Part shown: piece after piece, positions 9,901 to 49,058 of the stretch
Numbering within the stretch: the first letter of the stretch is position 1
Layout: every line of letters starts with the position of its first letter
Assembly: GCF_934196125.1 (NCBI RefSeq)
Contig: NZ_CAKPVT010000003.1
DNA: 64,000 nucleotides
Strand: one strand, 5' to 3'
Source: an uncultured Streptococcus sp.
Lineage (GTDB): Bacteria > Bacillota > Bacilli > Lactobacillales > Streptococcaceae
The notes under the pieces: generated by a model
What the model was told of the DNA's origin: nothing
The model's database searches: none
The model's input: the letters and a program-made list of their open reading frames with translations, nothing else
Program-made: the position numbers and the translations under genes

Positions 9901-10353
9901 TTAGAAAGTCTTTTCGCTATCACGAACAACTAGCAAATCGATTTTTGCATGACGCATGATGTATTCTGATGAAGAACCGATAAGAAGTCGTTCAAATGTG
10001 TTGAGACCAGTTGCCCCAACCATAATCAAGTCAACTTTTTCTTTGTCAGGAATATCTCGTGCTAGGAGAGTTTTAGGATTACCAAATTCGATAACTTGTT
10101 TGAGCTTCGTTAATCCTTTTTCGCGTGCTTGTTGCTCATAATCGTTCAATACCTCTTTTGCTTCCTGTTCGAGCTTTTCATAAATGTAAGTGTCGAAAGT
10201 AGCAACACTTTGAAGTGCGCGTGTATCAATAACGTGTGTTAGTAGCAACTCAGCATTATTGCGTAGTGCAATGTTTACCCCTTTTTCAAAAGCCAACTCT
10301 GATTCATAAGAACCATCAATCGCAATTAGGATTCGTTCATAATGATGTGACAT
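9901..10353 (-). CDS. Universal stress protein (UspA family)
   Basis: 150 aa, ILIAIDGS...LLLTHV...GATG motifs. RBS aaggaggagg. Confidence 0.85.
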   Translation of the reverse strand: MSHHYERILIAIDGSYESELAFEKGVNIALRNNAELLLTHVIDTRALQSVATFDTYIYEKLEQEAKEVLNDYEQQAREKGLTKLKQVIEFGNPKTLLARDIPDKEKVDLIMVGATGLNTFERLLIGSSSEYIMRHAKIDLLVVRDSEKTF

Positions 10354-10676
10354 AACTGCCTCCTCCTTAATTATGCTAGCAAGAGCGTAAAAGTGACCGA
10401 AAATGTAGGATTAATAAGAAATCTTGGTTTTAGTGACCTAAGGTTAGTTATCCGTGTGCTATTACATCAGGTAAAAGCATCCCGCATTCCAAACTTTCAG
10501 CCCATATCAATAAGTTTAATAAGCTAATTGCGGGATGAACAAGTAGCGTTAAACGCTTACGATTGTTGTTAAAACATCCCTAAGCTTATTATACTCTTTT
10601 TATATGAAAAATGAAAGCGTTTGAAGTATTTTTCTGAATATTTTTTGCTATAATAGAAAAAGCGAGGGAAAAAGTA

Positions 10677-12443
10677 ATGAGAAAAGATATGGTAGTTGTT
10701 TTAAAAGATTTGTATCGTCATAAATACACATACATTTTACGAGCAACGATTTTACAACTCCTAATCACGACAGTTGGGGCTTATGTCTTGTCACTGTTAA
10801 TTAGGGTTGTTTTGGTTGGTTCTGATATTCCAGGAATGACAACCGACAATATCTTTTCTTTTTTAAACAATCCGTTAACATTAAGTGTTTTGGTGATTTA
10901 TCTTTTTTTGCTAGCTTTTTTAGTTTACCTAGAATTTTCGCTTCTTGTTGAAATTATTCGGCACAAGGAAGGAAAACTACGGTTGACTTGGATGCGGTTA
11001 AAAGAAGATGTCATTTACTTTTTTAAAGCCATTTCAGGTTGGCATTTCGTAGCCTTTTTGGCTTATCTTGTTTTAACGATTCCGTTTTTGACTGTGATGT
11101 TTTCATCAGCTTTGTTAGAAAATCTCTATATTCCGAAATTTATCTCAGGTGAGCTTTTGAAAACGACGAATGGAAAGCTACTCTATTATGGGCTTTACCT
11201 TGTTTTAGGCTACTTAAATCTTCGATTTTTATACACCTTGCCCTTGACGGTTACTGGAAAAGGTGAACGTTTTGGGCGTAATATGGCAACATCTTGGCAA
11301 CTAACACGTGGTAAGAAAATTTTAAAATTATTTAGGCTTGCTATTGTTCTGATTAGTGTTATAGCTGTTGTTGCTGTGTTTAGTTTTCTTGGCATCAGTT
11401 TGGCGGCTTTGGTTGATGGCGCAGATAAATCGTTTTGGGTTGAAACTTTATTCTTATCCTTTGTTTGGGGAGTATTGTTTGCAGGGCGACTGCTGTTCAA
11501 ATTAGCATCGATTTCCTACTTATTACAAGTGACAGAAAATAGCAGTAGCACTTTAGTACCTGCTAATCAAGGAAAAAGACGACATCGTTTGTTAGCTTTG
11601 ACTGGACTTATTTTGGTCGTTGGTGGTATTAATTATATATACAATGTTTTGAAAGTGTCTGGCGAACCTGTGGAGTACTTAGAAGTGATTGCACATAGGG
11701 GAATGGTTTCGCAAGGGGTTGAAAATTCTCTGGAAGCTTTGGAAGGTGCGGCAAATGCTGGCGCTGACTATGCTGAAATGGATATTATTTTATCAAAAGA
11801 CCAGCAATTTATCGTTAGCCATGATGATAATCTCAAGCGCCTAACGGGCAAGGATATCACGATTTCACAATCTAATGCCAAAGACGTTATTGGTTTGAAA
11901 ACAAGTCAAAATGGATACCAATCGCAAATTGTTTCTTTCGAGGATTACGTCGCTAAGGCAAAGCAACTCGGTATAAAATTGTTAGTCGAGTTAAAACCAA
12001 CAGGCAATGAGCCTGCAAATTATGAACGATTGTTTGTTGATAAAATGAAAGAGCTGGGTGTTGAGAAATCTTATATGACCATGTCTGCGGACCTAAAGAC
12101 AATTGAAACGGTTGAAAAACTTGCCCCAACAATCAAAACAGGCTATACCATTTCTTTGCAAATTGGAAATTTTACCAGCCAGAAGGTGGATTTTTATGCG
12201 ATTGAGGACTTCTCATATAATGAGCTCTTAGCACGTACAGCGCATAAAAATGGCAAGAAGATTTACGTCTGGACGATTAATTCAACTGATGATATTGAAA
12301 AATACGTCGAAACCAGTACAGATGGGATTATTACCGATTATCCAGATTTGGTGAGTGATATTGAAGTATATTTAGCAAACGATAATAGCTATCTTGACTA
12401 TTTTTTGCGTCTAACTAACCTTTCTTGGATTGAAAATTTGTAA
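10677..12443 (+). CDS. Membrane-anchored glycerophosphodiester phosphodiesterase
   Basis: 588 aa. Polytopic N-terminal half plus a C-terminal GDPD domain (HRG...EMDI...SHDD). Confidence 0.8.
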   Translation: MRKDMVVVLKDLYRHKYTYILRATILQLLITTVGAYVLSLLIRVVLVGSDIPGMTTDNIFSFLNNPLTLSVLVIYLFLLAFLVYLEFSLLVEIIRHKEGKLRLTWMRLKEDVIYFFKAISGWHFVAFLAYLVLTIPFLTVMFSSALLENLYIPKFISGELLKTTNGKLLYYGLYLVLGYLNLRFLYTLPLTVTGKGERFGRNMATSWQLTRGKKILKLFRLAIVLISVIAVVAVFSFLGISLAALVDGADKSFWVETLFLSFVWGVLFAGRLLFKLASISYLLQVTENSSSTLVPANQGKRRHRLLALTGLILVVGGINYIYNVLKVSGEPVEYLEVIAHRGMVSQGVENSLEALEGAANAGADYAEMDIILSKDQQFIVSHDDNLKRLTGKDITISQSNAKDVIGLKTSQNGYQSQIVSFEDYVAKAKQLGIKLLVELKPTGNEPANYERLFVDKMKELGVEKSYMTMSADLKTIETVEKLAPTIKTGYTISLQIGNFTSQKVDFYAIEDFSYNELLARTAHKNGKKIYVWTINSTDDIEKYVETSTDGIITDYPDLVSDIEVYLANDNSYLDYFLRLTNLSWIENL

Positions 12444-12479
12444 GGGAAAGTTTATAATATCTAAAACGAGGTAAAATCC

Positions 12480-13694
12480 ATGAAAGTATTTGATAAATCT
12501 TCAAAGCTAGAACACGTTGCTTATGATATCAGAGGACCAATTCTTGACGAAGCTAACCGTATGATTGCTAACGGAGAAAAAATCTTGCGCCTTAATACTG
12601 GTAACCCAGCTGAATTCGGCTTTACAGCACCAGACGAAGTCATTCGAGACTTGATTGCCAATGTCCGCAATAGTGAAGCTTATTCAGATAGTAAAGGGAT
12701 TTTTTCTGCGCGTAAGGCAATTATGCAATATTGTCAGCTAAAAGGATTCCCACATGTGGATATTGATGATGTTTATCTAGGAAATGGTGTGTCTGAATTG
12801 ATTTCAATGTCTCTTCAGGCGCTTCTTGATGATAGCGATGAAGTCTTGGTGCCAATGCCTGATTACCCATTGTGGACAGCTTGTGTTAGCTTGGCGGGTG
12901 GTAATGCTGTTCATTATCTTTGTGATGAAAAAGCTAACTGGTATCCTGATATTGATGATATCAAATCAAAAATCACTTCTAACACAAAAGCGATTGTTGT
13001 GATTAACCCTAATAACCCAACAGGCGCTTTATACCCTGATGAGCTTCTTAAAGAAATTGTTGAAATTGCTCGTCAAAATGATTTGATTATCTTTGCTGAT
13101 GAAATCTATGATCGCTTGGTAATGGACGGCAACACACACACAGCAATTGCTAGCTTAGCACCAGATGTTTTCTGTGTGTCAATGAATGGTTTATCAAAAT
13201 CTCACCGAATCTGCGGTTTCCGTGTTGGTTGGATGGTCTTATCAGGTCCTAGAAATAATGTTAAAGGCTACATTGAAGGGCTTAATATGTTGGCAAATAT
13301 GCGCCTTTGCGCTAATGTCTTAGGTCAACATGTTGTTCAAACCTCACTTGGTGGCTATCAATCAGTTGATGAATTGTTGATTCCTGGTGGTCGAATTTAT
13401 GAACAACGTAACTTCATCTACAAAGCTGTCAATGACGTTCCAGGGCTTTCAGCTGTAAAACCAGACGCAGGACTTTACATTTTCCCTAAAATCGACCGTG
13501 AAATGTATCAGATTGATGATGACGAACAGTTCTGTTTGGAATTATTGAAACAAGAAAAAGTCATGTTGGTTCCTGGTAAAGGATTCAACTGGAAAGAACC
13601 AGACCACTTCCGTATCGTTTATCTACCACGTGTGGAAGAATTGGCAGAAGTTCAAGAAAAATTAACAAGAGTATTAAGTCAATATCGACGCTAA
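12480..13694 (+). CDS. PLP-dependent aminotransferase, AlaA/AlaT-like
   Basis: 404 aa class-I aminotransferase (NPNNPTG; SLSKS..CGFRVGW lysine motif). Conserved position upstream of codY. Confidence 0.85.
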   Translation: MKVFDKSSKLEHVAYDIRGPILDEANRMIANGEKILRLNTGNPAEFGFTAPDEVIRDLIANVRNSEAYSDSKGIFSARKAIMQYCQLKGFPHVDIDDVYLGNGVSELISMSLQALLDDSDEVLVPMPDYPLWTACVSLAGGNAVHYLCDEKANWYPDIDDIKSKITSNTKAIVVINPNNPTGALYPDELLKEIVEIARQNDLIIFADEIYDRLVMDGNTHTAIASLAPDVFCVSMNGLSKSHRICGFRVGWMVLSGPRNNVKGYIEGLNMLANMRLCANVLGQHVVQTSLGGYQSVDELLIPGGRIYEQRNFIYKAVNDVPGLSAVKPDAGLYIFPKIDREMYQIDDDEQFCLELLKQEKVMLVPGKGFNWKEPDHFRIVYLPRVEELAEVQEKLTRVLSQYRR

Positions 13695-13829
13695 AGAAAA
13701 AGTTATTAAAATGTTGGAAATTTGCAATTTGATTAAAAGATCAAGTGCAAAATCCGAACGTTTTAATGCTTTTTTTGATTAAAATCCGCTTAAAAAGAAT
13801 GCGTTTACAAAAATGTCGGAAGATAAAGG

Positions 13830-13844
13830 AATTTTCAGATAATT
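13830..13844 (+). promoter_or_regulatory. CodY box (AATTTTCAGATAATT; one mismatch to the AATTTTCWGAAAATT consensus) next to the codY promoter
   Basis: 14/15 match to the consensus, located 3 bp upstream of the -35 element. Confidence 0.55.
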
Positions 13845-18704: not shown

Positions 18705-19256
18705 ATGTTCGTTTTATTATTACTAGTCATCAGTTTAGTCTTCTGTATCGTTTACTTCAGGAAGAAGTCTAACTGGCTGCTATGGTTTAATCTTGTTTTT
18801 GTTTTATTGACATTTTTCTATAAGTTGACTAAAATAGGGCTGGCTAGTCAAGATTTAGCTTTACGAATTAATTATGATTACTATCTATTTTCTTTATCAG
18901 TAATTGCATTTCTTTTCGGAATTGTTGTTAATATCCTCTATATCTATGAGGATAGTTGGTTAGAAAAGTTAGTTCTAGGCTTTGGCTTAGTTGTTGGTTC
19001 AGTTTTTATCTTTTTTGTGCCTTTCTCATTTTACTATGCTTCGGGAGCTATTAGTGAATATGAAACCATTAGAGAAAATGGTAAAACTTATGTTTTAGCG
19101 GGAGAAAGTTTTAATTTTCATCGTTCTTTTCGTCATAAGTATGAGGTGGTGTCTAAATATCTCCGCCATGCTAAACCGATTGATTATGATATTGATCATC
19201 TTAGTGAACGATTTAATGATGGTAAATCTTACGAAGATTATTATGATATCAAATAA
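18705..19256 (+). CDS. Hypothetical polytopic membrane protein (AT-rich accessory DNA)
   Basis: 183 aa with about 4 TM helices. RBS ttggag. Marks the start of a low-GC island directly after gatB. Confidence 0.45.
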   Translation: MFVLLLLVISLVFCIVYFRKKSNWLLWFNLVFVLLTFFYKLTKIGLASQDLALRINYDYYLFSLSVIAFLFGIVVNILYIYEDSWLEKLVLGFGLVVGSVFIFFVPFSFYYASGAISEYETIRENGKTYVLAGESFNFHRSFRHKYEVVSKYLRHAKPIDYDIDHLSERFNDGKSYEDYYDIK

Positions 19257-19386
19257 GAATTATTTGATATGCAGTACTATTATTATTTAACGACTATAAT
19301 ACTTAAGGCTAGCAAAATTGAAAGAAGATTAAATTTTAAGAAAAGCATATAAATCAAGGAAAATCATAAATAGAAGTTTGCTTTTT

Positions 19387-19596
19387 ATGGTATCAATGTT
19401 TGTAATAACTAGCATGATTTATTTTAGTAACTATGAGTTTATGTGGTTGTTTATTGTAGGTCTTTCTGCACTAAGTGTCTCTTTACTGATAGGAATACGT
19501 CACATGAGGTATAACCTAGTTGTAAAGAATATAACCGTAGATAATAGAGAGAGTTACAAGGTTTTAAAAAAATTAGAAAAAGAAGGTGTATTTTAA
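19387..19596 (+). CDS. Hypothetical small membrane protein
   Basis: 69-72 aa with two hydrophobic helices. Weak RBS; start is ambiguous (TTG 19378 or ATG 19387). Confidence 0.25.
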   Translation: MVSMFVITSMIYFSNYEFMWLFIVGLSALSVSLLIGIRHMRYNLVVKNITVDNRESYKVLKKLEKEGVF

Positions 19597-19598
19597 GA

Positions 19599-19733
19599 GT
19601 TCCATCGGGTAATGAAGCTGGAGCTTGGCAAGGAATGTGGATACCAGGTGGTTTTACAAATGCAGGAATCCCAGAAGCAGTTATTAATCAGATCCTCTCA
19701 GATGGATATAAAGTAATAGATGTATTTAAATAA
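19599..19733 (+). pseudogene. Remnant of the last about 45 codons of a toxin-like gene (VPSGNEAGAWQGMWIPGGFTNAGIPEAVINQILSDGYKVIDVFK*), with no start codon
   Basis: The open frame runs without ATG/RBS into a stop that sits 17 bp before the RBS of the downstream immunity-like gene. Its position mirrors the toxin C-termini of the cassettes downstream. Confidence 0.3.
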
Positions 19734-19750
19734 AGAAAGGCGGATAACTA

Positions 19751-20093
19751 TGGAGGAAATATTTCCAGGAAATGGTTTTGCAGTTGTAAAAAAAAAGATA
19801 ATACGTACACAATTGAATGGCCTCAAGGGCCATTTGACCAGACAGTTTCTTACCCAATAACCAAAGAATTGGCAGATAAAGCTTTCAGATTCTATGACGA
19901 TGCTTATGAAGTAATGATATATGCTGAGACTGGTTTGTGGCCAGAAAAAAATACAGAAGATGAAGAAAATGAACGAGTAAGAAAATTCCCAGAGTTATTG
20001 ATAAAAGTTCCTGATAATCAAGATTTATTTACAGAAGAAGAATTGAAAACATTGATACCTTTAGGAGAAAAAAGTTTATCAGAAGAAGAGTAA
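19751..20093 (+). pseudogene. Immunity-like small acidic protein interrupted by a +/-1 frameshift in an A9 homopolymer (19788-19796)
   Basis: RBS aaaggcgg. ATG at 19751 gives MEEIFPGNGFAVVKKK, then 9 A's. Beyond that the other frame continues DNTYTIEWPQGPFDQ...EELKTLIPLGEKSLSEEE up to 20093. Confidence 0.45.
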
Positions 20094-20105
20094 TTTAATA
20101 AAGTA

Positions 20106-20261
20106 AAAAGGCACTTTACTATCTGATTGGCGTCGGATAGTAAAGCCTTGACTAGTAAGAGTGAACTCACTAATCAAGTTGCCAATAGCTAACAAAAAGC
20201 TAGCTGTATTTATTGTACAAAAATTCAAAGGACTTTTCTAGTCTTTTTGAGTGTTTCTTAA
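20106..20261 (+). repeat. Cassette-junction repeat, copy 1 (12-bp-stem inverted repeat plus conserved spacer), ending at the toxin-module start
   Basis: Nearly identical to 21104-21260 apart from compensatory changes in the hairpin arms. Hairpin 20110-20147. Confidence 0.85.
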
Positions 20262-20837
20262 ATGTACAATCATTTCAGTAGCATGGTCAAAGGTGCTTCA
20301 TCCACGAAGATGGAGCATGTCGTGAAGATGATGCAGAATAGTGGTAGAAGTAATTATAAAAATATTATGACCCAAGCTAAGAATCTTCAAACTGCACAAG
20401 CGCTCCTAAATGAGAAAGCCAGTGGGGCTGGTGAATTTAATATAAATGAAATTCGACCAAAATTAAAAACAGATTCAGATACTGCATTTTTCTGGTCTGG
20501 TAGAACAGATGGTGTTGGAGGAGCTGACATAGCAGCAAATGTAGCAAAAGGTAAAGGCGGTACGACTTTAGAGTCAACAATAGCGAATAAAAATATTAAA
20601 ATGCCTGAATGGGATTTTAATAACCCAAGTTCAATGGAAGCTTGGGACTTGGCTTCAGGAGCTTATGCAGAACAAGTTTCTGGTCAGGTTCGTGCAGTAG
20701 TAGGTTCAGAGTTGAGACCTGGCAATATATGGGAAAATGTGGAGTTACCTCGATTAAAAAGTAATCCTAACGTAACTCAAATTACTACAATTGACCCAAA
20801 AACAGGAATTGAAAAAATCATTTTTGAAAGGAAGTAA
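20262..20837 (+). CDS. Orphan polymorphic-toxin C-terminal module 1 (conserved 56-aa N-terminal segment plus variable 135-aa domain of unknown activity)
   Basis: The first 168 nt are near-identical to the 21261 paralogue, then diverge sharply. No SD in front of the ATG (…gtgtttcttaaATG). Followed by a small gene with an RBS. Confidence 0.55.
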   Translation: MYNHFSSMVKGASSTKMEHVVKMMQNSGRSNYKNIMTQAKNLQTAQALLNEKASGAGEFNINEIRPKLKTDSDTAFFWSGRTDGVGGADIAANVAKGKGGTTLESTIANKNIKMPEWDFNNPSSMEAWDLASGAYAEQVSGQVRAVVGSELRPGNIWENVELPRLKSNPNVTQITTIDPKTGIEKIIFERK

Positions 20838-20842
20838 ATTAA

Positions 20843-21076
20843 ATGAAAATTACAGGGAGTAGCTCACACGTGAAATTTGATTTAGAAAATGGATATGCGG
20901 TGAAGGCAGACGGAGAAATGTTAGTAGGAGGGAAATTTGTAGCTTTTAAAGATTCAATGAAAAATTGGGAGCCACCACATGAAAATGAAGAACTTTCAGA
21001 AAAAGAAATTCAAGAAATTATTCAGCAGGTAAAAGAAAATACAAACGAAAATACTGTGCAAATTTCATTTGAATAA
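20843..21076 (+). CDS. Putative cognate immunity protein 1 (77 aa, acidic)
   Basis: Strong RBS aaaggaag. Starts 5 bp after the toxin-module stop. Confidence 0.5.
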   Translation: MKITGSSSHVKFDLENGYAVKADGEMLVGGKFVAFKDSMKNWEPPHENEELSEKEIQEIIQQVKENTNENTVQISFE

Positions 21077-21103
21077 ATAAGTAATATATTGAATTTAAAA
21101 ATA

Positions 21104-21260
21104 AAAAAGGCACTTTATCACTAGACTGGTAATCAAGTGATAAAGCCTTGACTAGTAAGCATACACTCATTAATCAAGTTGCCAATAGCTACCAAAAGAT
21201 AGCTGTATTTATTGTACGAAACTTCAAGGGACTTTTCTAGTCTTTTTGAGTGTTTCTTAG
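21104..21260 (+). repeat. Cassette-junction repeat, copy 2
   Basis: Hairpin 21109-21147 (GGCACTTTATCACT...AGTGATAAAGCC) followed by a conserved 110-bp spacer. Confidence 0.85.
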
Positions 21261-21884
21261 GTGTACAATCATTTCAGTAGCATGGTCAAAGGAGCTTCAT
21301 CCACGAAGATGGAGCATGTCGTGAAGATGATGCAGAATAGTGGTAGAAGTAATTATAAAAATATTATGACCCAAGCTAAGAATCTTCAAACTGCACAAGC
21401 GCTCCTAAATGAGAAAGCCAGTGGGGCTAATAATTTCAAATTTGGAAATAATTCAAAGAATCATTTGAAAAATGTAGAGGTGGTCAATACTAAAAGAGGG
21501 GTTGTTGGTGGTCATAATATGGATGATTTCAACAATGCACTTAAAAATCAAGGATTTAATCCAGAAGACTTGATTGTTTCAAAAAAACCACACCCAACTA
21601 TTGATGGCATTTATGAAGTTGAATACAAAATACCTAGAAAAGATATGGCTGGTAATGTTGCGGAACCAATATCTTATAAGAATATTGAAAAACCAAAAAC
21701 AGTTTATGCCCCAACAAAAATTAGTGACAATCAAATGTATGAATGGGGGCAGACTGCCATGAATAATGGGAAAATCCAACCAGACGGTCGAACAATTATT
21801 GGAACTTCTCCAAACGGTGTAAAATTTATAGGCTATTTAAATGACGCAGGAGAAGTAACTAATTTTTTCCCTGTATTAAATTAG
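21261..21884 (+). CDS. Orphan polymorphic-toxin C-terminal module 2 (same conserved 56-aa head, different 150-aa variable domain; possible nuclease-type fold)
   Basis: GTG where copy 1 has ATG, and no SD. The variable part (GGHNMDDF...KTVYAPT...NFFPVLN) is unrelated to module 1. Confidence 0.55.
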   Translation: MYNHFSSMVKGASSTKMEHVVKMMQNSGRSNYKNIMTQAKNLQTAQALLNEKASGANNFKFGNNSKNHLKNVEVVNTKRGVVGGHNMDDFNNALKNQGFNPEDLIVSKKPHPTIDGIYEVEYKIPRKDMAGNVAEPISYKNIEKPKTVYAPTKISDNQMYEWGQTAMNNGKIQPDGRTIIGTSPNGVKFIGYLNDAGEVTNFFPVLN

Positions 21885-21904
21885 AATGATTGGATTGTGA
21901 TACT

Positions 21905-22294
21905 ATGGAAAATGAATTTCAAATTTTAAATGATAAGAAAAGTATAGATCAATTAATGTTAACCTATTTTTCAATAGTAAGTGGAAAAGATTTAGAAAGA
22001 GCTTTATCTGCTTTTAAAGAAGAAAAAGGATATGGAATAGAAATAGTTTTTGTTTCTTTTAAAAATGATTTAGATGACTACGATATGATGCAGTTACCTA
22101 AAACATTAGATGATAATCATGTTTTAGTTGAATTAGGTTCTCCAGCTGTCGAAGTAGATCAAATAGCATATTTAGACTTTAAAACTTTTTATGATTATTT
22201 AGCTGAGAACGTAAAAAAAGAGATAGAAAAAAATTCAGAAGAAAGTGCATTAATAGAACTTTTAAAACAAGTTAAAATCAGTTTGGAGATATAG
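21905..22294 (+). CDS. Putative cognate immunity protein 2 (about 130 aa)
   Basis: Starts 6-20 bp after the module 2 stop (TTG 21890 or ATG 21905). Acidic, with no TM helices. Confidence 0.45.
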   Translation: MENEFQILNDKKSIDQLMLTYFSIVSGKDLERALSAFKEEKGYGIEIVFVSFKNDLDDYDMMQLPKTLDDNHVLVELGSPAVEVDQIAYLDFKTFYDYLAENVKKEIEKNSEESALIELLKQVKISLEI

Positions 22295-22316
22295 TTTTTA
22301 TAAAATAAAAATGGTA

Positions 22317-22430
22317 AGTGATAAAGCCTCGAATAGTAAGGTCTAAACTCACTAATCAAGTTTCTGATAGATACTAATATAAAAAAGTGTAACGTATTTA
22401 TTTAAGAATACATTACACTTTTTTTGTTTG
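22317..22430 (+). terminator. Partial third junction repeat (right arm only) followed by a strong rho-independent terminator (22381-22426)
   Basis: agtgataaagcc...aactcactaatcaag shared with copies 1 and 2, then GTGTAACGTATT...AATACATTACAC followed by TTTTTTT. Confidence 0.6.
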
Positions 22431-22561
22431 ATAATTAAAAAATATCCCAGTCTCTTTTCTGAAATTTAAGAACCAAATTACTAATCTCTTTTAGGTCATT
22501 TTGAGTTAAGTTGTGCAGACTTTGAATAATTTCATACTCCTCTTGAGAAGTTATAGTATAT

Positions 22562-22599
22562 GGGGTCACTGGAACATCCGTACAGAAAATAGCGGTAGG
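22562..22599 (+). repeat. Tn3-family 38-bp terminal inverted repeat (GGGGTCACTGGAAC...), outer end at 22562
   Basis: Starts GGGG and resembles the Tn3 IR. Lies 27 bp beyond the tnpA stop, as IRL does in Tn3-family elements. No matching second IR was found in the window. Confidence 0.4.
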
Positions 22600-22626
22600 A
22601 TTTAAAACACGAACATTTTAGATTTA

Positions 22627-24981
22627 TTATGAATTTAAAGGACGTAATTGACCATTTTTCAAGGAAGGATCGTATCGAAACGAATATTTACCAACAAAGT
22701 TAATATGCTCAAAGAGAAGTGGTGACAACTTATTGATTTTCTCTTCTGAACAATCAAATCCTTCAATACGCATTTGGTCAATTACTCTTTCTAAATAAAG
22801 TGTATTCCAATAAATGATGGCATTTGTCACAATGCTGAGAGCAGTCAATTGCTCTTCCATTCCGTCAATATAGGTTTGATAAAGTTTGCCCTTTTTTCCA
22901 TAAAATATGTGGCGACATAATGTATGTCTTGCTTCTCCTTTATTCAGCTGTTCTAAAATCTGTCTTGCGTAAATTTCATCAGAGATATAGCGTAATTGAT
23001 GCTTTGTTTTATATACTTTTCCATACTCAATAATGGCTTTTCCTAGCTCTGTTGGTTGGCCATTGCGTTGAAGTGCTTTTGTTAATTCTATCGCATTCAC
23101 TTTTCCTGATTTCAAGGAACCTGCTACTCGAAGTATTTCACTCCAGTTTTTTTCTATTCGAGCAATGTTGATTTTATTTTGAGAAACTTCATTTAACATT
23201 TTATAGTCTGCAGTTAAGTCTATTCGCCAAAGTTTTGTTCCATGGTTGTTAGCAATTCGTGGGCTAAATTGGAACCCTAACAAGCCAAAAAGTCCAAATA
23301 CTAAGTCACTATATCCGGCTGTATCTGGCATGATTTGTTTCGGTTCTAAGCCACTTGTTTGATTTAAAAAACCATCCAATAAGTACAAAGAATCACGCAA
23401 TGTTCCTGGAACAACCATTCCATGAAAGCCTATATATTGATCAGAAACAAAGTTGTAAAATGTGATTCTACGACCACGGCCAAAATATTTTGGATTGCTT
23501 CTAGAATATAAGGAACGTTGTGGTGTGGTATAACGAATGCCATCGGCTGAAGCCATCTGATTCGTTCCCCATACACGAGAAGTAGGTAGTTCTTTGTATG
23601 CAGAAATAATTTTTTTATTTGTTGCTGACAGTGTATCCAATCGAACATATTGGTGATTGACGTACATTAGCCGATCATATTTTAAACTCTCGATTCCTTC
23701 TTTAGATACTGGAGAAAAAACAATATTACAGGCTTCTGCTAAAAGTACTGCTAGAACACTAATATCTAGGTGATCCATACGCGTATTCGATTCATTAATA
23801 TGGTGGAAACAGGAGGTTAAATCAAGTTGTTGATTTACCTCCAATAATAAATCTGGAAGATCAATTTTGGGCATTAATGCTTTTACGCGATTTTTGAACT
23901 GCTTATCTTCCTTATGTTCACGTGTTTTTCGGAGTTTAGACACGATAATTTTATCTTTGTTCTCCTGTTTTTCAATTCTAGCCATTTCAGAATGAGGCCA
24001 TTTTTTTATTGTTTCGTTATAAGACAGACTTAAAACTTCTTCTAATTGTTTTATTGCTTCAGTAGAAGATCTAGGTAATTCCAATTGAGAGAGTAAACTT
24101 TCTTTTTGCTGTTCCCACGTATCTTCACTGATTAAACAACTCATTGGATCAATGAATCTTTCACTTTTAGGTACAAATATATCATGTTTATTCAAGCTTT
24201 GGATTAGTAACTCAACACCTAGAATAAGCATACTTTGATTGACTTCATTAGGGTTAGAGTGAATATAATAAGCCCATTTCTTTGGTATATGATTTTCAAC
24301 AGATTCAAATTGTCTAAAGGTAATTGGCTTTGGAAATCTACGTCGAATTAAGTACCACACTGCCATACAATCTTCACCATAGTGGCCATTTTCTATTGTT
24401 AATGTTTCAATAATCAAAGGAATAAACTTTCGAATTTTACGATAAGATTGAATTAATTCTGCGATTGCAATAGGTTCTTGTTCATTTTTAACAAGTTTCT
24501 TTACTTGAAACACCGCATTTACAATATCCTCTGCTGGATATTGGTCAAACACTCGGCTTCGCAGACAATCATTTTCAATAGAATCGTCTAAAAATAGTTC
24601 AACTATTTCAGATAGAGTAAATGCTGCACGATCCAAATCTTTTAACGTTCGTAGTCGCTCTTTTGATTCTTTATTTTTTGCTCGTCTAAAAATTGACTCA
24701 TAATATTTTATTAAAGCTGTAAGTAATTCGTCTGTAGCAATCTTTTCATACTCATACACAAAAGCAACTAAAAGGGCTAATTTTTTCTGAATACTCATTC
24801 TTTGAATAAGGCTTGATTTGGCTTTAAAAGCGTAGGCAGCTAAATGTTTTATTTTCCCTTCAGGGATAGTTGAGAAATCCCATTTACTCGTATGAAACTG
24901 CTGGAATTCCTTTAATCGATGAAAACCACGAATGATTTCTTTCCTACTTTCATCAATTAAAGGAGCTCGTAAAATATCCAT
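22627..24981 (-). mobile_element. tnpA: Tn3-family transposase TnpA (784 aa), probably 5'-truncated; one-ended transposon remnant
   Basis: C-terminal Tn3 DDE-domain motifs (LTKALQRNG...WNTLY...GKYSFR). About 200 aa shorter than typical TnpA. No resolvase or res site, and no RBS context upstream. Confidence 0.75.
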
Positions 24982-25068
24982 TTTAGTGAATGCCCCTTGA
25001 ACAGGTGTACTCTAATGTGTTTAACGATGGATATTTAGGTTTATTCAAGTTAATGCTAAAATTGATCC

Positions 25069-26530: not shown

Positions 26531-26612
26531 TGAGTGTTACCATTAAGGCAACCAATGCAACTAGCAATGTTCCAAACTGGAACATCAAACCAATTGCTTC
26601 AGCAACAGACAA
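26490..26612 (-). CDS. Small hydrophobic holin-like toxin peptide (Hol-Tox-like, 40 aa, TTG start)
   Basis: (L)SVAEAIGLMFQFGTLLVALVALMVTLSKNNNRTASSQAH: a single TM helix with a basic tail. SD gaaggga 10 nt upstream. Confidence 0.35.
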   Translation of the reverse strand: MSVAEAIGLMFQFGTLLVALVALMVTLSKNNNRTASSQAH

Positions 26613-26949
26613 AAATGCTATTCCCTTCTACGAAGTAGGAAAATGCTCATAAGCATCACCCCCTGAATAGCCAACCGCCATAAACTTACTACGTCAATTA
26701 GTATATCATAATTATAGGCCTAATTATTTTGCTGCTTTATCGGGATTTCTAATGGTGAAGGAAGATACAACTAGCTGTTTTTTACTGTTGAAATGACCCT
26801 CAACAGAAATATTGTACTTTCCATCTTGTAGCATTAACAGTAATGTCGTTAATTCAGGATTCACTACAATGCAATTATAAGATCGATGAATCGTTGTTAA
26901 CGCAAACCAGGAGTTCAAATTTTCTGATTATGCAGTCAACATCTAACAC

Positions 26950-27992: not shown

Positions 27993-28247
27993 ATGTCGCA
28001 AATGAGTAAACACTATGAACCAGAATTCAAAAAGAAGATTGTACGTCTTCATCTTGAAGAGGGACGAACCCTAAAAGGCCTTGCTGCTGAATATGGCGTA
28101 TCCAAGGCAAGTATATCTATTTGGGTAAAACAGTTCCGTGAAGAATGCCAAACAAATGAAGAAGCCAAAGTAGAGTATGATTACATGAAGGAGAATTTGC
28201 AGTTAAAAAAACAACTAGCAGAACTCCAGAAGGAAATTGACTTTTAA
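27993..28247 (+). CDS. IS3-family transposase OrfA (HTH)
   Basis: 84 aa, MSQMSKHYEPEFKKKIVRLHLEEGRTLKGLAAEYGVS...; RBS ggagg. Confidence 0.85.
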   Translation: MSQMSKHYEPEFKKKIVRLHLEEGRTLKGLAAEYGVSKASISIWVKQFREECQTNEEAKVEYDYMKENLQLKKQLAELQKEIDF

Positions 28248-28269
28248 AAAAAGCAGCGGCATTCTTTGC

Positions 28270-29153
28270 GAAGGAAATCGATTAGCGGCTTATCGATTTA
28301 TTCAGCAGTATGGGCGCAAATACGGTGTCCGTTGGTTATTGAAAAGACTGAACATCTTACCAAATGCTTATTATAATTTAATTTCTTGAAAAACAGGAAA
28401 TCTGAATATAATAAGCACAAGGTCAAAATCAAGCATGAAATTGTGGATATCTATCACGCTCACAACGGCACTGATGGTTACAGAACTGTGCATGCTTATC
28501 TTCTTCGCAAGGGATACAGCATCAGTTGTGTAACTGTCCATAAGTACATGAATACAGAGCTTCAGTTATTTTCAATTACAAGGAAACGCAAGCCAGACTA
28601 TGAATATGGGGCTCCTCACAAAGTGTTTGAAAATAAGCTCCATCAGGATTTTAAGGCAGAATCCATAAACCAGAAATGGTGCACTGATTTTACCTATTTA
28701 TTCTTAACGGATGGTAGCAAACGTTATAACTGTACAATCATTGATCTGCATGATAGAAGTGTTATTGCCAGCATTACCGATAAGCACATAACAGCGGATC
28801 TTGCAAAGAAAACACTGCAGAAGGCAATTGATTCATAACCGGAATTAGATACTAACCATTTAATTTTACACTCGGATCAAGGAAGTCAGTTTACCTCAAA
28901 GGAATTCACGGAATACTGTGAGTCAGTTGGTATCACGCAAAGCATGAGCAAAGCTGGATATCCGTATGATAATGCTCCTATGGAACGTTATTACAATACT
29001 CTCAAGAATGAACTGATTAATCATCATTACTATCATTCTGAGAAAGAATTATATACATCCATTGAAGAATTTGCGTATGTTCATTACAATCACGAACGAC
29101 CGCATTCTTATAACAATTATAAAACACCTTTTGAGGCACGTTACGGGGCATGA
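28270..29153 (+). pseudogene. IS3-family transposase OrfB (integrase core), disrupted
   Basis: The OrfB N-terminus (AAYRFIQQYGRKYGVRWLLKRL) is in one frame and the DDE core (WCTDFTY...HSDQGSQFTS...ERPH) in two others, interrupted by a frameshift and a TAA. Confidence 0.8.
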
Positions 29154-29189
29154 ACCCTATAGCAATAAAAATTAGGTCAAAGTGTTACA

Positions 29190-29624
29190 AAAAAGTGGAT
29201 AGATGTCAATAAAATAGACACAAAAAGAGAAGATACTTAAAGACATTCAAAGTACAGAGCCTCCTTTTCATTTGGTGTAAGCATATCTAAGGTGCCATGA
29301 GGACGTTTGGTGTTATAGAATCCTTCAATGTAAGCGAAACAAGCTAACCGTACTTCTTCGATTGAATGAAATGAACGGCGGTTTAATTCTTCTTTTTTCA
29401 TATATTTTAAAAAAGCTTCGGTGACAGCGTTATCCCACGGATAACCTGGTTTAGAAAGAGAATGGACAATCGGATGATGCTCTATAAACTTTCTAAATTC
29501 TAAAGAGGTATATTGAGAACCTTGATCTGTATGAAAAAGAACAGGACTCATTAAATTTCGAGAATGAAGTGCTTTATCTAATGTTTTAATAGCTAGGTTT
29601 GTATCAATTAGTGGAAGGATCTTG
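29190..29624 (-). pseudogene. 3' fragment of a second IS3-family transposase OrfB (IS3/IS861 group), 5'-truncated, abutting the first IS
   Basis: ...LIDTNLAIKTL...FHTDQGSQYTS...YPWDNAVTE...KRPH. The element end TGTACTTTGAATG... lies directly against the right IR of the first IS. Confidence 0.7.
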
Positions 29625-30041
29625 GATCGTTTGGGAGCTAAAAAGCCAATTATCTTTGGGGGAAGCATGCTTGTCTTTGCTCTTTGTCTTTATAGTATTT
29701 TTGGCTTGCATTTATCAAATGCTTGGTTGACAATTTTCTACATCTTATCAATGGGTGGAACTGGAATTGCTTTTGGTAATGTCATGACAAGTGGTCAAAA
29801 ACAAGTAGCACTTAAGGAGCGTGCAGATGCTAACGTAATTTTTAATACACTACAACAATTTGCTGGTGCTGTTGGAACAACAATCGCTTCACTGGTTGTA
29901 GCCTTAAGCCAAACAAACAGCAGCCTTAGTTACTCTGCAGCAACAGCCCAAGGTTCACGCAACGCTTTTATCGTCTTGCTCATTCTAGCAGCTGTCGAAC
30001 TTGTTATCTTACTACGAGTTGTTGACGGAAAAGAAAAATAA
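29622..30041 (+). pseudogene. C-terminal fragment (about 4 TM helices) of an MFS transporter truncated by IS insertion
   Basis: LGAKKPIIFGGSMLVFALCLY... has MFS C-terminal topology. No start codon or RBS. The N-terminal portion is replaced by IS3 fragments. Confidence 0.55.
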
Positions 30042-36247: not shown

Positions 36248-36568
36248 TTAGAATCCGAAACTTCGCTCACTTTCTAATGAACTAACCTTTCCTTTTTTTA
36301 TTTTTGCCCCTTCTTTTTCTACCCATTTCTCATATCGCTGTATAAAACGTGTTTCTTCTTCATCTTTAAATCCTTCAAAAACAACTTCATCGATATCTTC
36401 ATCATTAAAATAAAAAACTTGTTCTGGATCTAACCCTTCAGGGTAACGTGCACCAGTATAATCAAAATAAACTTTCTGCCCCTCATGATCAATCAATGGT
36501 CCACGGTTTAAAATCATAATTTTTTGATTTCCTTCTGCTAAATAAACGGTACTTCCAATTGATAACAT
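36248..36568 (-). CDS. DUF4176-family protein (family recurrent in type VII secretion / LXG toxin loci)
   Basis: MLSIGSTVYLAEGNQKIMILNRGPLIDHEGQKVYFDYTGARYPEGL matches the DUF4176 pattern. Followed by a hairpin GCCTA-ttaca-TAGGC. Confidence 0.55.
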   Translation of the reverse strand: MLSIGSTVYLAEGNQKIMILNRGPLIDHEGQKVYFDYTGARYPEGLDPEQVFYFNDEDIDEVVFEGFKDEEETRFIQRYEKWVEKEGAKIKKGKVSSLESERSFGF

Positions 36569-38485: not shown

Positions 38486-38752
38486 TTGGAATTATTACTT
38501 GTTGATACTATTCAATGGATGGAAGAAATTGAATCTATCCATATAGAATTACTTCAAGAAAAAATTAATAATTATATTCACTATCTCGAAAGCAAGCAAT
38601 ATGTTGAAAAGTATGGCGATAACTTCAAAGAAAAGGTCATCCATATTACCTTTCAATATGCTCCTTCAGATAATGGTCTTGCTTTTCTAGTTCAAGTTCA
38701 AAAAGTTTTGCAATCAACTGATATGAGCTTGAAAGTAACTTTACAAGATTGA
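38486..38752 (+). CDS. Hypothetical protein (about 88 aa; immunity-like?)
   Basis: TTG/ATG start is ambiguous. Acidic helical protein. Confidence 0.35.
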   Translation: MELLLVDTIQWMEEIESIHIELLQEKINNYIHYLESKQYVEKYGDNFKEKVIHITFQYAPSDNGLAFLVQVQKVLQSTDMSLKVTLQD

Positions 38753-38929
38753 TTTCAAGGCGCTTTTGCGTCTTTTTCTCTCATTCTTCAATCGTAATCT
38801 TCTTTTATGGTAAACTATTTGCAAAGCACAGCTGAATTTCAATTCTTTTTCTCATTCTTTACTTGCTATTGATAGTTACATTCTCTTTAACGCTCTGCGA
38901 TTTTCAAAAAAGACCGTAATCATGGGTAG

Positions 38930-39208
38930 TTGGTCATTGACTACAAGGGTGGGGGAATGGCCAATCTCTTTAAAGACCTGCCCCACTTGCTTGGAACGAT
39001 TACCAACTTGGATGGGGCGCAAGCCATGCGTGCTTTGACTTCAATCAATGCTGAAATTCACCGTCGTGAACGCATATTTGTGGCAAATGGGGTTAACCAT
39101 ATCAATCAGTACCAGAAGAAATACAAACTGGGTGAGGTTGCTGAGCCACTACCGCATTTGTTCTTGATTTCAGATGATGAAAACCTTGATAAGAATTGGC
39201 AAATCTGA
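38930..39208 (+). pseudogene. Remnant of an EssC-like FtsK/SpoIIIE-family secretion ATPase with an internal deletion
   Basis: [21 protein letters not shown] (the pre-Walker-A segment) is joined directly to ...[24 protein letters not shown]...[10 protein letters not shown] (the Walker-B region). The Walker A GxxGSGKS is missing. Confidence 0.5.
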
Positions 39209-39290
39209 AGTTAGTTATCATCGCTTCTCCAGTTTCATCAATGCAAGCTAAATCATGTTTGTTTTTGGCAATGTCAATACCAACATAGAG
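39190..39290 (-). pseudogene. IS110-family transposase N-terminal remnant (about 33 codons)
   Basis: [33 protein letters not shown] with RBS aaagga. The listed 93-aa ORF is a chimera with the antisense strand of the EssC remnant. Confidence 0.5.
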
Positions 39291-39439
39291 CATAAGTTTC
39301 TGATTCCTTTCCAAGTGATTAGCGACTGTTGTTCGTTCCACGCACTCTTTGCCTTGTATTCTTACACGAAATAAAACGTCCAAGCGTTATCATTCTCATT
39401 ACCAATAAAAAAAAGAGCTGTGGTTAGAGTCTCCTACAA

Positions 39440-47693: not shown

Positions 47694-48041
47694 TTGAACC
47701 TTATTTATGATAAAATAAAACAACATCAAAAGGGAGACGTATCTTTAGCAAAAGCAGATGGCTCATTTGTTTTAGGTACCGATAATTTCAACGGATATAT
47801 TAAAGGAAATGCGGAGTTACTATCTGCTTCTGGGCATGCTGAATTTGAGTTTGAAAACGATAGATTCGCTATTGGATTAGGTGGTGAAGCTACTGGTGTT
47901 AACGTGTCCTATTCTGCTGGAGTGTCATTTTTAGAATATGATAATGGCGGTGATAAAGGAAATCTCTTCGGAATACAGGGAGGACCAAAACTTGATGCAG
48001 GAGTTAGTGCAAACTTTTCTTTATCTGGGGAGAAAGCATGA
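47694..48041 (+). CDS. Hypothetical Gly-rich beta-type protein (115 aa), probably the first part of a frameshifted gene that continues in another frame to about 48180
   Basis: No obvious family. The next frame continues with similar composition (MNFGLVDINAVNLKLGGSLGG...). Confidence 0.3.
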   Translation: MNLIYDKIKQHQKGDVSLAKADGSFVLGTDNFNGYIKGNAELLSASGHAEFEFENDRFAIGLGGEATGVNVSYSAGVSFLEYDNGGDKGNLFGIQGGPKLDAGVSANFSLSGEKA

Positions 48042-48638
48042 ACTTTGGACTGGTTGACATCAATGCTGTTAACCTGAAATTAGGGGGCTCACTGGGTGGG
48101 TCTTGGATTCGATTTAGATTTAACATTACCAATTCCAACTTGGAATTTTGGCTGGGGGTTAGCTCATGATAGACAGTATAAAAAGCAAATGGTGGTTATT
48201 TACTATTTTATCAGGAATTTGTATGTATCTTAATCCTTACTTTGGCTTATTTTCTATTTTTATGATAGTTGTTCTATTTTTTGATATTATAATGTTTACA
48301 ATTATGAAAGGACATTTTTATCTTTTTTCAAAAAAATAGCCGATAAAACAGAACACACAAGAATAATTAAGAAAATATTTGATAAGGAGATACTTTTTTT
48401 AAAAATTGGAAAATTATTTACCACTATTGTTATGATTTTTGTGATTTTAGTAGTAGTCAAACAGAATCTAGATACTCAAAAAATAATGGCTCCATATTAT
48501 ATACCAGTTATACAAACAAACTTTTTTTGCAGATTACTTGTATAATTCTATCTGTAATCTTAATAGTATTTTCTTTTATTCTATTTTGTTTTTATGCAGA
48601 TTCATATAAACAGAAATTGAATGAATTGGTGTAATTAA

Positions 48639-49058
48639 ATGAAAAGATCTCTATTATTATTTTTCATATTTACAATTACATTATTAATCAATAACAATAT
48701 AAAATACTATGGATTAATCAGTTTATTCTTGATTCTTCCCTACTTTATTCATACTATAAATCTATCCATACGTAAAAAGTTAGCAGCTAAAGATAGCTAT
48801 ATAGGACGAGAAGCTAAACGACAATTAGAATTTTTTAGTAGCAAAGTTTATAGAATGCTTATATTAATTCCTACTATCCTTCTCGGAATAATACTATTCA
48901 TTATGTATACAGTAGTTGTTTTGAACAACTCATTTGAACTACATAATGTAATATTATTATCAATAAGTGGTATTCTTTTAATAGGGTTTTTATGGCAGTT
49001 TTATTTAGAAATAGAAAAAAATTATGAAAGGATTGGTATTATGGGTTATTTAAAATAG
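48639..49058 (+). CDS. Hypothetical 4-TM membrane protein in a very AT-rich patch
   Basis: 139 aa; composition only. Confidence 0.35.
   Translation: MKRSLLLFFIFTITLLINNNIKYYGLISLFLILPYFIHTINLSIRKKLAAKDSYIGREAKRQLEFFSSKVYRMLILIPTILLGIILFIMYTVVVLNNSFELHNVILLSISGILLIGFLWQFYLEIEKNYERIGIMGYLK

Follow-up and report, generated by a model that had tools for sequence, protein, structure and literature searches.

A probably vestigial array of orphan toxin–immunity cassettes in a Streptococcus of the bovis/equinus group

What is the origin, and what is the remaining use, of toxin-like coding regions that carry no signals for their own translation and are each followed by a small immunity-like gene? The question is raised by positions 19599-22430 of a 64,000-nucleotide stretch of contig NZ_CAKPVT010000003.1 (assembly GCF_934196125.1, uncultured Streptococcus sp.), where three consecutive toxin/immunity units lie on the plus strand; this stretch, hereafter the window, is the 64 kb of the genome that were visible to us. 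An initial annotation took the units for orphan C-terminal toxin/immunity cassettes with a conserved 5' recombination handle, and the core of that proposal holds. The locus is very probably a vestigial array of orphan toxin–immunity cassettes from a polymorphic toxin family that relatives would export by the type VIIb secretion system (T7SSb). Decay after deletion of the main gene, which had been offered as an alternative, fits the data, as the N-terminal secretion domain is missing from every Streptococcus contig seen. The array is made up as follows (nt, nucleotides; ORF, open reading frame; SD, Shine–Dalgarno).

19597..19733, plus strand: stump of the unit 1 toxin, of which ~45 codons at the 3' end are left (ending …GNEAGAWQGMWIPGGFTNAGIPEAVINQILSDGYKVIDVFK and a stop codon), defined by translation and a frame walk
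19750..20093, plus strand: imm1, the immunity gene of unit 1, a pseudogene in the window, frameshifted in the homopolymer run 19788-19796
20094..20275: junction 1, conserved and non-coding, with hairpins A (20110-20147), B (20147-20178) and C (20187-20205)
20262..20837, plus strand: unit 2 orphan module, a 191-aa ORF with the head and a predicted Tac1-type ADP-ribosyl cyclase (Tox-ARC) NAD(P)+ hydrolase domain (~20430-20837)
20276..20425, plus strand: head copy 1, 150 nt, encoding the linker (S)MVKGASSTKMEHVVKMMQNSGRSNYKNIMTQAKNLQTAQALLNEKASG and homologous to an internal segment of PT-TG toxins
20843..21076, plus strand: Imm74-family (Tci1-like) immunity gene of unit 2 (PF15603, E=1.5e-13, above the gathering threshold), with the SD-like sequence GAAAGGAAG
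21077..21274: junction 2, with hairpins A (21109-21147), B (21147-21178) and C (21187-21204)
21261..21884, plus strand: unit 3 orphan module, a 207-aa ORF with the head and a predicted bacterial EndoU RNase domain
21275..21424, plus strand: head copy 2, 99.3% identical to copy 1
21905..22294, plus strand: imm3, the immunity gene of unit 3, 129 aa, acidic, with an alternative TTG start at 21890
22316-22377 (within 22295..22424): degenerate third copy of the junction, in which the left arm of hairpin A is missing
22381-22424: bidirectional terminator-like inverted repeat at the end of the array

The layout of three units had been recognized correctly, but unit 1 is reduced to its stump and imm1 is frameshifted. 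The immunity-like ORFs follow their toxin modules after 16, 5, and 20 nt in units 1, 2, and 3, respectively, and are acidic (pI 4.35 for imm1, 4.74 for Imm74, and 4.38 for imm3). The ribosome-binding sites ascribed to all of them are clear for Imm74 and imm1 (AAAGGCGGA) but weak before the ATG of imm3 at 21905. It should be noted that imm1 and imm3 were taken as immunity genes by position only.

The conserved repeats reported at the junctions are present. A direct repeat of 249 nt (20192-20440 and 21191-21439) is 95% identical without gaps and extends, with gaps, to ~337 nt at 90.8% identity (20094-20429 vs 21093-21428), which corresponds to the junction plus the 150-nt coding head; no other direct repeat in the 64-kb window reaches 150 nt, and the number of chance matches expected for the junction motifs is zero. 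Counted from the ORF starts (ATG 20262 and GTG 21261), the modules of units 2 and 3 are identical at 166 of 168 nt, with ATG/GTG and ggTgct/ggAgct as the two differences, and they diverge abruptly 3' of GCCAGTGGGGCT. The 56-aa head described by the initial annotation is therefore near-identical in both units, but only 150 nt of it are homologous to larger toxins, its start codon and first seven codons (MYNHFSS) being junction sequence without such homology. ORF pairs of equal length in other parts of the window (of 175 aa and of 106 aa) were also considered as repeats and turned out to encode unrelated proteins.

The C-terminal domain of unit 2 aligns without gaps over 133 residues with the structure of Tac1 (PDB 9OUF, E=2.2e-66) and also matches a second 'ADP-ribosylcyclase toxin' structure (9RO8, E=1.2e-57). 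Tac1 and Tci1 of Streptococcus parasanguinis are an experimentally shown T7SSb toxin/immunity pair, in which Tac1, whose residue E573 is essential, depletes NAD(P)+ and the immunity protein Tci1 belongs to the Imm74 family (PMC12356396). Six active-site residues of Tac1, all mutagenised in that protein, are kept in the unit 2 ORF, W78, E104, W117, W128, S132, and E161 corresponding to Tac1 W490, E516, W529, W540, S544, and E573. The unit 2 toxin is, as predicted from these alignments, a Tac1-type ADP-ribosyl cyclase (ARC) NAD(P)ase. More than 200 homologs of its ARC domain carry diverse N-termini, including PT-TG, Rhs/YD-shell, PT-HINT, and PAAR, and the association of Tox-ARC with Imm74 was already drawn by Zhang et al. 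in 2012 (PMC3482391). A promoter-like sequence, TTGACC-16-(TG)AAAAAT, recognized by consensus match only, lies at 20791-20818 within the 3' end of the ARC module and just 5' of the Imm74 gene; it could give Imm74 an expression independent of the toxin.

The C-terminal domain of unit 3 matches PF14436 over model positions 3-128/129 (E=1.4e-17, 64.7 bits with a cut-off of 25.3) and the structure of a CdiA C-terminal domain (CdiA-CT; PDB 5HKQ, E=2.7e-13); the protein is labeled by NCBI as a 'CdiA family toxin C-terminal domain-containing protein'. The unit 3 toxin is a predicted EndoU RNase, and its domain also occurs fused to PT-TG in the proteins P0206, P0211, and P0215. No family was found for imm3 by Pfam, NCBIfam, or PDB sequence searches. 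Since the window Imm74 falls into one cluster at ≥90% with Listeria Imm74 proteins and the EndoU domain clusters with Enterococcus gilvus proteins, the cassettes point to a likely exchange across genera. The array is thus of a well-known kind and both intact toxins belong to named families; the suggestion of an undescribed toxin family with unnamed variable domains was mistaken, as Tac1/Tox-ARC with Imm74 and EndoU are named and partly characterized.

The host GatB protein clusters with those of S. equinus, S. lutetiensis, and S. infantarius, and metagenome contigs of many samples (hereafter the sister contigs) have flanks 99.6-99.7% identical to the window and arrays that differ from it. It is in these contigs and in more distant relatives that the head was found inside larger toxins, as the initial annotation had anticipated. 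Homology of the orphans to a gene of the sister contigs encoding a PT-TG-deaminase protein spans exactly 150 nt, with 96.7-97.3% identity. In that 296-aa protein (L001-L006) the head lies between PT-TG and a BURPS668_1122-type deaminase domain, and a 125-aa immunity gene follows; in the 306-aa P0206 it lies between PT-TG and EndoU. An exhaustive HMMER search with the head in 1.84 billion cluster representatives returned only 11 hits, so the head is rare. A word-index search with the 56-aa head alone gave one 68-aa hit, missed known relatives, and was judged uninformative.

Full-length toxins were identified in other genomes. The head occupies residues 287-326 of the 494-aa toxin P0230, which is encoded in the complete genome CP172876.1 (L031) directly after EsaA-YukD-YukC-EssC … EsxC-like-101 aa-DUF5081-98 aa, a complete T7SSb locus, and is followed by an immunity-sized gene and then by a 385-aa PT-TG fragment. 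A 487-aa toxin of Enterococcus ureilyticus combines PT-TG, a head-like segment, and TNT, and is followed by Imm59; it lies ~7 kb downstream of essC at a locus with weak matches to TIGR04197 partners (L008), and its head-like segment has diverged to ~80% nt identity over 84 nt. On the Bacillus mycoides plasmid pBMX_1, a 675-aa homolog is encoded directly after essC-WXG100-DUF5081 (L019). The Enterococcus and Bacillus toxins are homologous over their N-terminal ~300 residues (38% identity, E=1e-60). The parent toxins thus consist of an N-terminal domain of ~185 aa, the PT-TG pre-toxin domain, a linker of ~50 aa (the head), and a variable toxin domain, and ~16 different C-terminal domains are found on the same head: two EndoU types, a deaminase, Endonuclease_NS_2, two ARC types, TNT, and several without assignment. 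Membership of the LXG family was rejected at the sequence level, no match to LXG (PF04740) being obtained in the N-terminal 186 and 181 aa of the E. ureilyticus and B. mycoides parents even at E<=10, nor on the whole proteins. On these comparisons, the head is predicted to be the linker that follows the PT-TG pre-toxin domain, and the parent family would be exported by T7SSb in the relatives, a T7SSb-cluster setting having been found for L031, L019, and L008.

The linker position also bears on a different reading, in which the units would be stand-alone intracellular toxin–antitoxin (TA) or abortive-infection modules with no link to secretion. Such modules would account for the two-gene layout, in which a toxin is followed by a small acidic antidote, and for an AT-rich island adjoining mobile-element remnants; NADase and RNase activities are also common in TA and defense systems. 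However, the antitoxin is usually encoded first in TA systems, and here the toxin ORFs lack the translation signals that the immunity ORFs have. The head is an internal linker of toxins from T7SSb loci, and the same toxin domains stand C-terminally on long secreted toxins with PT-TG, Rhs/YD-shell, PAAR, PT-HINT, or LXG (PMC12356396). It is very unlikely that the units are of this kind.

The orphan cassettes would be silent in the window because they have no SD sequence, no conserved start, no plus-strand promoter, and in-frame stops directly upstream. Indeed, no SD sequence was found before the first start or the internal ATG of the unit 2 and unit 3 modules, and no sigma-70-like site on the plus strand within the junctions, in line with the initial annotation. 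The start codon is ATG, GTG, or, in one related copy, GCG, and a stop codon (TAA, TAG) stands in frame directly upstream of each module start. As they are now configured, the modules would be neither translated nor exportable.

As had been noted before, the window holds neither a full-length toxin gene nor a secretion apparatus. It lacks the PT-TG segment as well, and no full-length toxin gene and no intact EssC were found in the window or in any sister contig, the former being absent from all Streptococcus contigs. PT-TG genes are cut at two different points at the two loci that harbor them in this population, one beside gatCAB and the other beside recG. What remains of a T7SSb in the window is limited to the following fragments and single genes.

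36248-36568, minus strand: orphan DUF4176 gene, alone between housekeeping genes
38486-38752: DUF6572 gene, adjoining the EssC fragment
38930-39208: EssC/FtsK fragment, 92 aa, overlapping an IS110 transposase fragment (minus strand; region 38486-39383)

The DUF4176 family typically adjoins LXG toxins of T7SSb. The EssC fragment/DUF6572/IS110 debris is present in all sister contigs. DUF6572/EIC-CR is a targeting element in the MSE-ExT effectors of Streptococcus suis (PMC12558993), and the DUF6572 gene beside the essC fragment, together with intact toxin ORFs that keep their catalytic residues, would be expected if the head-toxin ORFs were functional minimal T7SS substrates, i.e., short proteins exported by a T7SS elsewhere through trans-acting targeting factors, as in S. 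suis. We consider this improbable. The MSE of S. suis measures ~310 aa vs ~50 aa for the head, which lacks the YxxxD/E motif; Imm74 and imm3 carry no DUF6572-like C-terminal region according to Pfam; and the missing SD sequences, the variable start codons, the stop codons immediately 5', and the lack of an intact EssC in the window and the sister contigs all speak against exported products. Since the secretion domain is missing in all Streptococcus contigs and only an EssC fragment is visible, the orphan array is better read as a relic.

Comparison of the sister contigs revealed at least five structural alleles of this relic, so that the differences in cassette number and order predicted by the initial annotation were found. 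They are listed here from left to right (J, junction).

Form A: stump-imm1, PT-TG-head-deaminase-imm, J-head-ARC-Imm74, J-head-EndoU-imm
Form B (the window): Form A minus the deaminase cassette, the boundary being a short A/T-rich microhomology
Form C (at least 24 contigs): stump-imm1, PT-TG-head-EndoU (306 aa, P0206)-imm
Form D/E (L021, L022, L025): PT-TG-head-EndoU, J-head-X, J-head-EndoU2, J-head-ARC-Imm74, then an intact gene of the MFS transporter family

Form C is what results when the left and right parts of Form A are joined, the overlap being the 150-nt head (L010 vs L001). Five single-nucleotide polymorphism (SNP) positions within the head form mosaics, which is consistent with crossovers inside the head itself. 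The cassette order of Form D/E is unlike that of Form A, and Form D/E has no Tn3 remnant. Each of the deaminase, EndoU1, and EndoU2 domains was found in two settings, fused to PT-TG and as an orphan of the junction type. In other strains, a second array of the PT-TG/head family lies downstream of recG (L016-L018, ~9956-13830), composed of a PT-TG fragment that carries EndoU2 and of two orphans, one a deaminase and one of unassigned type. Rep_trans and IS110 genes come next. The window has no such array at the corresponding site (~7.4 kb, ~7410). The company of Rep_trans and IS110 suggests that the arrays move with mobile DNA. Alleles differ by only 1-5 substitutions per gene, a divergence too low for a dN/dS or selection test.

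From these alleles we infer that the 150-nt head, or the ~290 nt of conserved junction and head, may serve as a substrate for RecA-type homologous recombination, which would swap or delete whole [head-toxin-immunity] units. The alternative is an integron-like, site-specific cassette system in which the structured junction, instead of head homology, would be the recombination site. Promoter-less cassettes between conserved, strongly structured imperfect inverted repeats would suit such a system, as would a cassette order that varies among strains. But no integrase or site-specific recombinase is encoded in or beside the array, where the neighbor is only a truncated Tn3 transposase, and neither an R''/R' core of the attC type nor a match to Rfam or to attC-like sequences was found in the junction. 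The breakpoints lie in the 150-nt head and in A/T-rich microhomology, in homologous stretches of variable position, not in the hairpins, and an integron-like origin is extremely unlikely.

The junctions of the orphan array nevertheless stand out by their structure. The folded elements (20095-20243 and 21095-21239) reach -42.5 and -38.7 kcal/mol on the minus strand (z = -6.9 and -5.8) vs -35.7 and -27.0 kcal/mol on the plus strand (z = -4.9 and -4.2). Among seven junction variants, compensatory changes occur at 4 pairs of the structure, and G·U cells number 27 on the minus strand vs 2 on the plus strand. A U-run follows the terminal hairpin on the minus strand only. The minus strand also carries the promoter-like TAGAAA-17-TACAAT at 20240-20212 (junction 1) and 21239-21211 (junction 2), such sites not being enriched relative to shuffled sequences. 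Hairpins B and C recur in all junctions, hairpin A is particular to the immunity gene upstream of it and travels with that gene, and the element is confined to Streptococcus arrays, being absent from the Enterococcus and Bacillus loci. No junction match was found in Rfam at gathering or permissive thresholds, the only hits being to sau-5971, below threshold and on the end terminator. A derivation of the junction from decayed PT-TG coding sequence was rejected, the local alignment score of the ~180 nt upstream of the orphans equaling the shuffle mean.

A tentative and rather unlikely interpretation is that the ~185-nt junction is a functional strand-specific element, namely a candidate antisense small RNA of ~110 nt with its own promoter, three hairpins, and a minus-strand intrinsic terminator. 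An RNA of this kind could insulate the individual cassettes or hold the orphan toxin modules in a silent state. Other possible roles of the element are those of an insulator or terminator against antisense transcription, or of a stabilizing 3' structure. If the functional interpretation were true, it would, together with the head crossovers, make the locus a natural case of recombination-ready cassettes under regulation, in a T7SSb toxin class with PT-TG and without LXG.

Unit 1 bears marks of decay. Its stump, identical across all sister contigs, is truncated at the 5' end, abuts the stop of a 69/72-aa membrane ORF, and matches no family in Pfam, NCBIfam, or PDB sequence searches. The A-run of imm1 counts nine residues in the window (A9) and eight in most sister contigs (A8), both out of frame, while A7 in 15 contigs restores an intact 113-aa protein (P0242/P0249). 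This variation could be slippage-driven inactivation, phase variation, or in part sequencing error. No family could be assigned to imm1, and no plasmid homolog was found for it.

To the left of the stump, two lineage-specific, AT-rich membrane ORFs without family (183 aa and 69/72 aa) fill 18705-19596 up to gatB; these are candidates for additional orphan immunity genes directed at membrane-acting toxins. The island has a GC content of 28-35% vs 38-40% in gatCAB. Its right bound is set by a feature that is not part of the array.

22627..24981, minus strand: Tn3-family transposase remnant lacking the N-terminal ~190 aa (NF033527 model positions 192-954)

From ~22551 onward, the region of this remnant is ~95% identical at the nt level to Enterococcus faecalis plasmids; a plasmid search gave no match for the array itself, only the Tn3 remnant matching these plasmids. 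Near the remnant (22551-25000, 27993-30041) lie IS3-type fragments and an MFS transporter gene cut to 139 aa, and in the sister strain L025 an intact MFS gene stands directly 3' of Imm74. An Rfam match to the Listeria small RNA rli28 (54.7 bits, gathering threshold 45) lies on the minus strand at 26543-26715, adjoining a 175-aa membrane ORF and insertion sequence fragments. Farther along the window, a Gly-rich 155-aa protein that is intact in L022 (19199-19666) is frameshifted at 47694-48230. It is followed, up to 49058, by a fragmented 156-aa multi-pass membrane ORF and then by a 139-aa membrane paralog; the region 47694-49058 resembles the remains of another toxin/membrane-immunity pair in decay, which may have been a membrane-acting one of the glycine-zipper type.

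The features of a cassette array found at the locus are thus toxin-domain homology, a downstream immunity gene, a head that is an internal segment elsewhere and lacks a delivery domain here, and strain variation. Placement downstream of a full-length toxin gene of the same family is seen in L031, and only the 45-codon stump lies upstream in the window. The remaining use of the relic is likely immunity. The sole selectable function left would be the protection that Imm74 and imm3 could give against matching toxins of T7SS-proficient neighbors; otherwise the array would be undergoing simple decay.

Several points weigh against a silent relic of this kind. Both toxin ORFs are intact and the catalytic residues of unit 2 are all kept, neither of which pure decay would require. 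A product may still arise if transcription reads through from gatCAB or from the membrane ORFs upstream and translation initiates non-canonically, and an intact T7SS with a full-length parent may be encoded elsewhere in the genome, beyond the 64-kb window. It is normal for active T7SS loci to have truncated essC copies in their variable regions (PMC9900821, PMC12558993). As for the exchange of cassettes, the alleles were read from assembled metagenomes, where contigs can be joined wrongly at repeats. Form C is, however, spanned unbroken by contigs of different samples and assemblers, including Logan contigs; the Logan contigs of strains with an intact imm1 stop right after that gene, which is consistent with a multi-copy repeat breaking assemblies. 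Finally, the observed rearrangements are all between orphan fragments, and none involves a full-length expressed gene in this species. They are equally compatible with reductive decay and do not demonstrate the initial proposal that the cassettes are kept for swapping onto an expressed toxin.

Within these bounds, one natural Streptococcus population holds the same three toxin domains both as silent junction-type orphans and as PT-TG fusions, and the crossovers mapping to the 150-nt linker are direct but observational support for the swapping model in T7SS-type toxins of Gram-positive bacteria. The locus also points to a little-studied parent class, with an N-terminus of ~185 aa without detectable LXG, then PT-TG, encoded after EsxC/WXG100-DUF5081 in T7SSb loci of Enterococcus and Bacillus. 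From a practical view, it would be an immunity reservoir against an ARC NADase and an EndoU in a bovis/equinus-group streptococcus whose own weapon has apparently been lost. Three aspects deserve to be retained: the evidence from nature for cassette exchange through the head, the PT-TG parent class without LXG, and the bias of the junction structure toward one strand.

Among known systems, the orphan arrays of CDI (contact-dependent growth inhibition) and Rhs loci and the MafB-CT cassettes of Neisseria resemble the present array in their tandem silent CT/immunity cassettes, a short common 5' segment, and homologous recombination with a main gene; recombination of orphan CDI/Rhs cassettes with the main gene was reportedly described by Koskiniemi in 2014. 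The EndoU of unit 3 is itself homologous to a CdiA-CT (5HKQ). Here, in contrast, the secretion route is the T7SSb of Gram-positive bacteria, handles such as VENN or PxxxxDPxGL-like motifs are absent, and the main gene is missing. The general principle of silent CT cassettes that recombine was set out by Zhang in 2012 (PMC3482391).

Two further systems, both of Streptococcus species, are Tac1-Tci1 and the MSE-ExT effectors. With the former, unit 2 shares the gapless ARC match, the active-site residues, and an Imm74 gene directly downstream, but Tac1 is a full-length LXG protein encoded with two Lap partner genes inside a T7SSb cluster, whereas the ARC domain of the window is a promoter-less orphan on a PT-TG-type linker. 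The S. suis MSE-ExT effectors are likewise modular toxins that lack their N-terminal part; their C-terminal toxins, many being NADases, can be exchanged, and they are encoded close to DUF6572 genes and truncated essC. They have an MSE of ~310 aa and are expressed and exported, in contrast to a segment of ~50 aa without translation signals in the window, and the two are set apart by this description.

The nearest counterparts are the orphan toxin genes of T7SSb loci, fragments that have been widely noted. They too are truncated at the 5' end, keep nucleotide homology to the full-length toxin, have an immunity gene next to them, and exist in full-length form in other strains or genera (PMC7790226, PMC13492133). 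According to a 2026 review, recombinational reconstitution of orphan toxins is 'not yet experimentally demonstrated' (PMC13492133). The window array differs from these genes in that its parent family has no detectable LXG and carries an uncharacterized N-terminus of ~185 aa with PT-TG instead, and in that the parent gene is deleted and the array stands beside gatCAB, a long way from any T7SS core. It further differs in that each junction holds a conserved structured non-coding element, and in that crossovers in the handle are evident here from population data.

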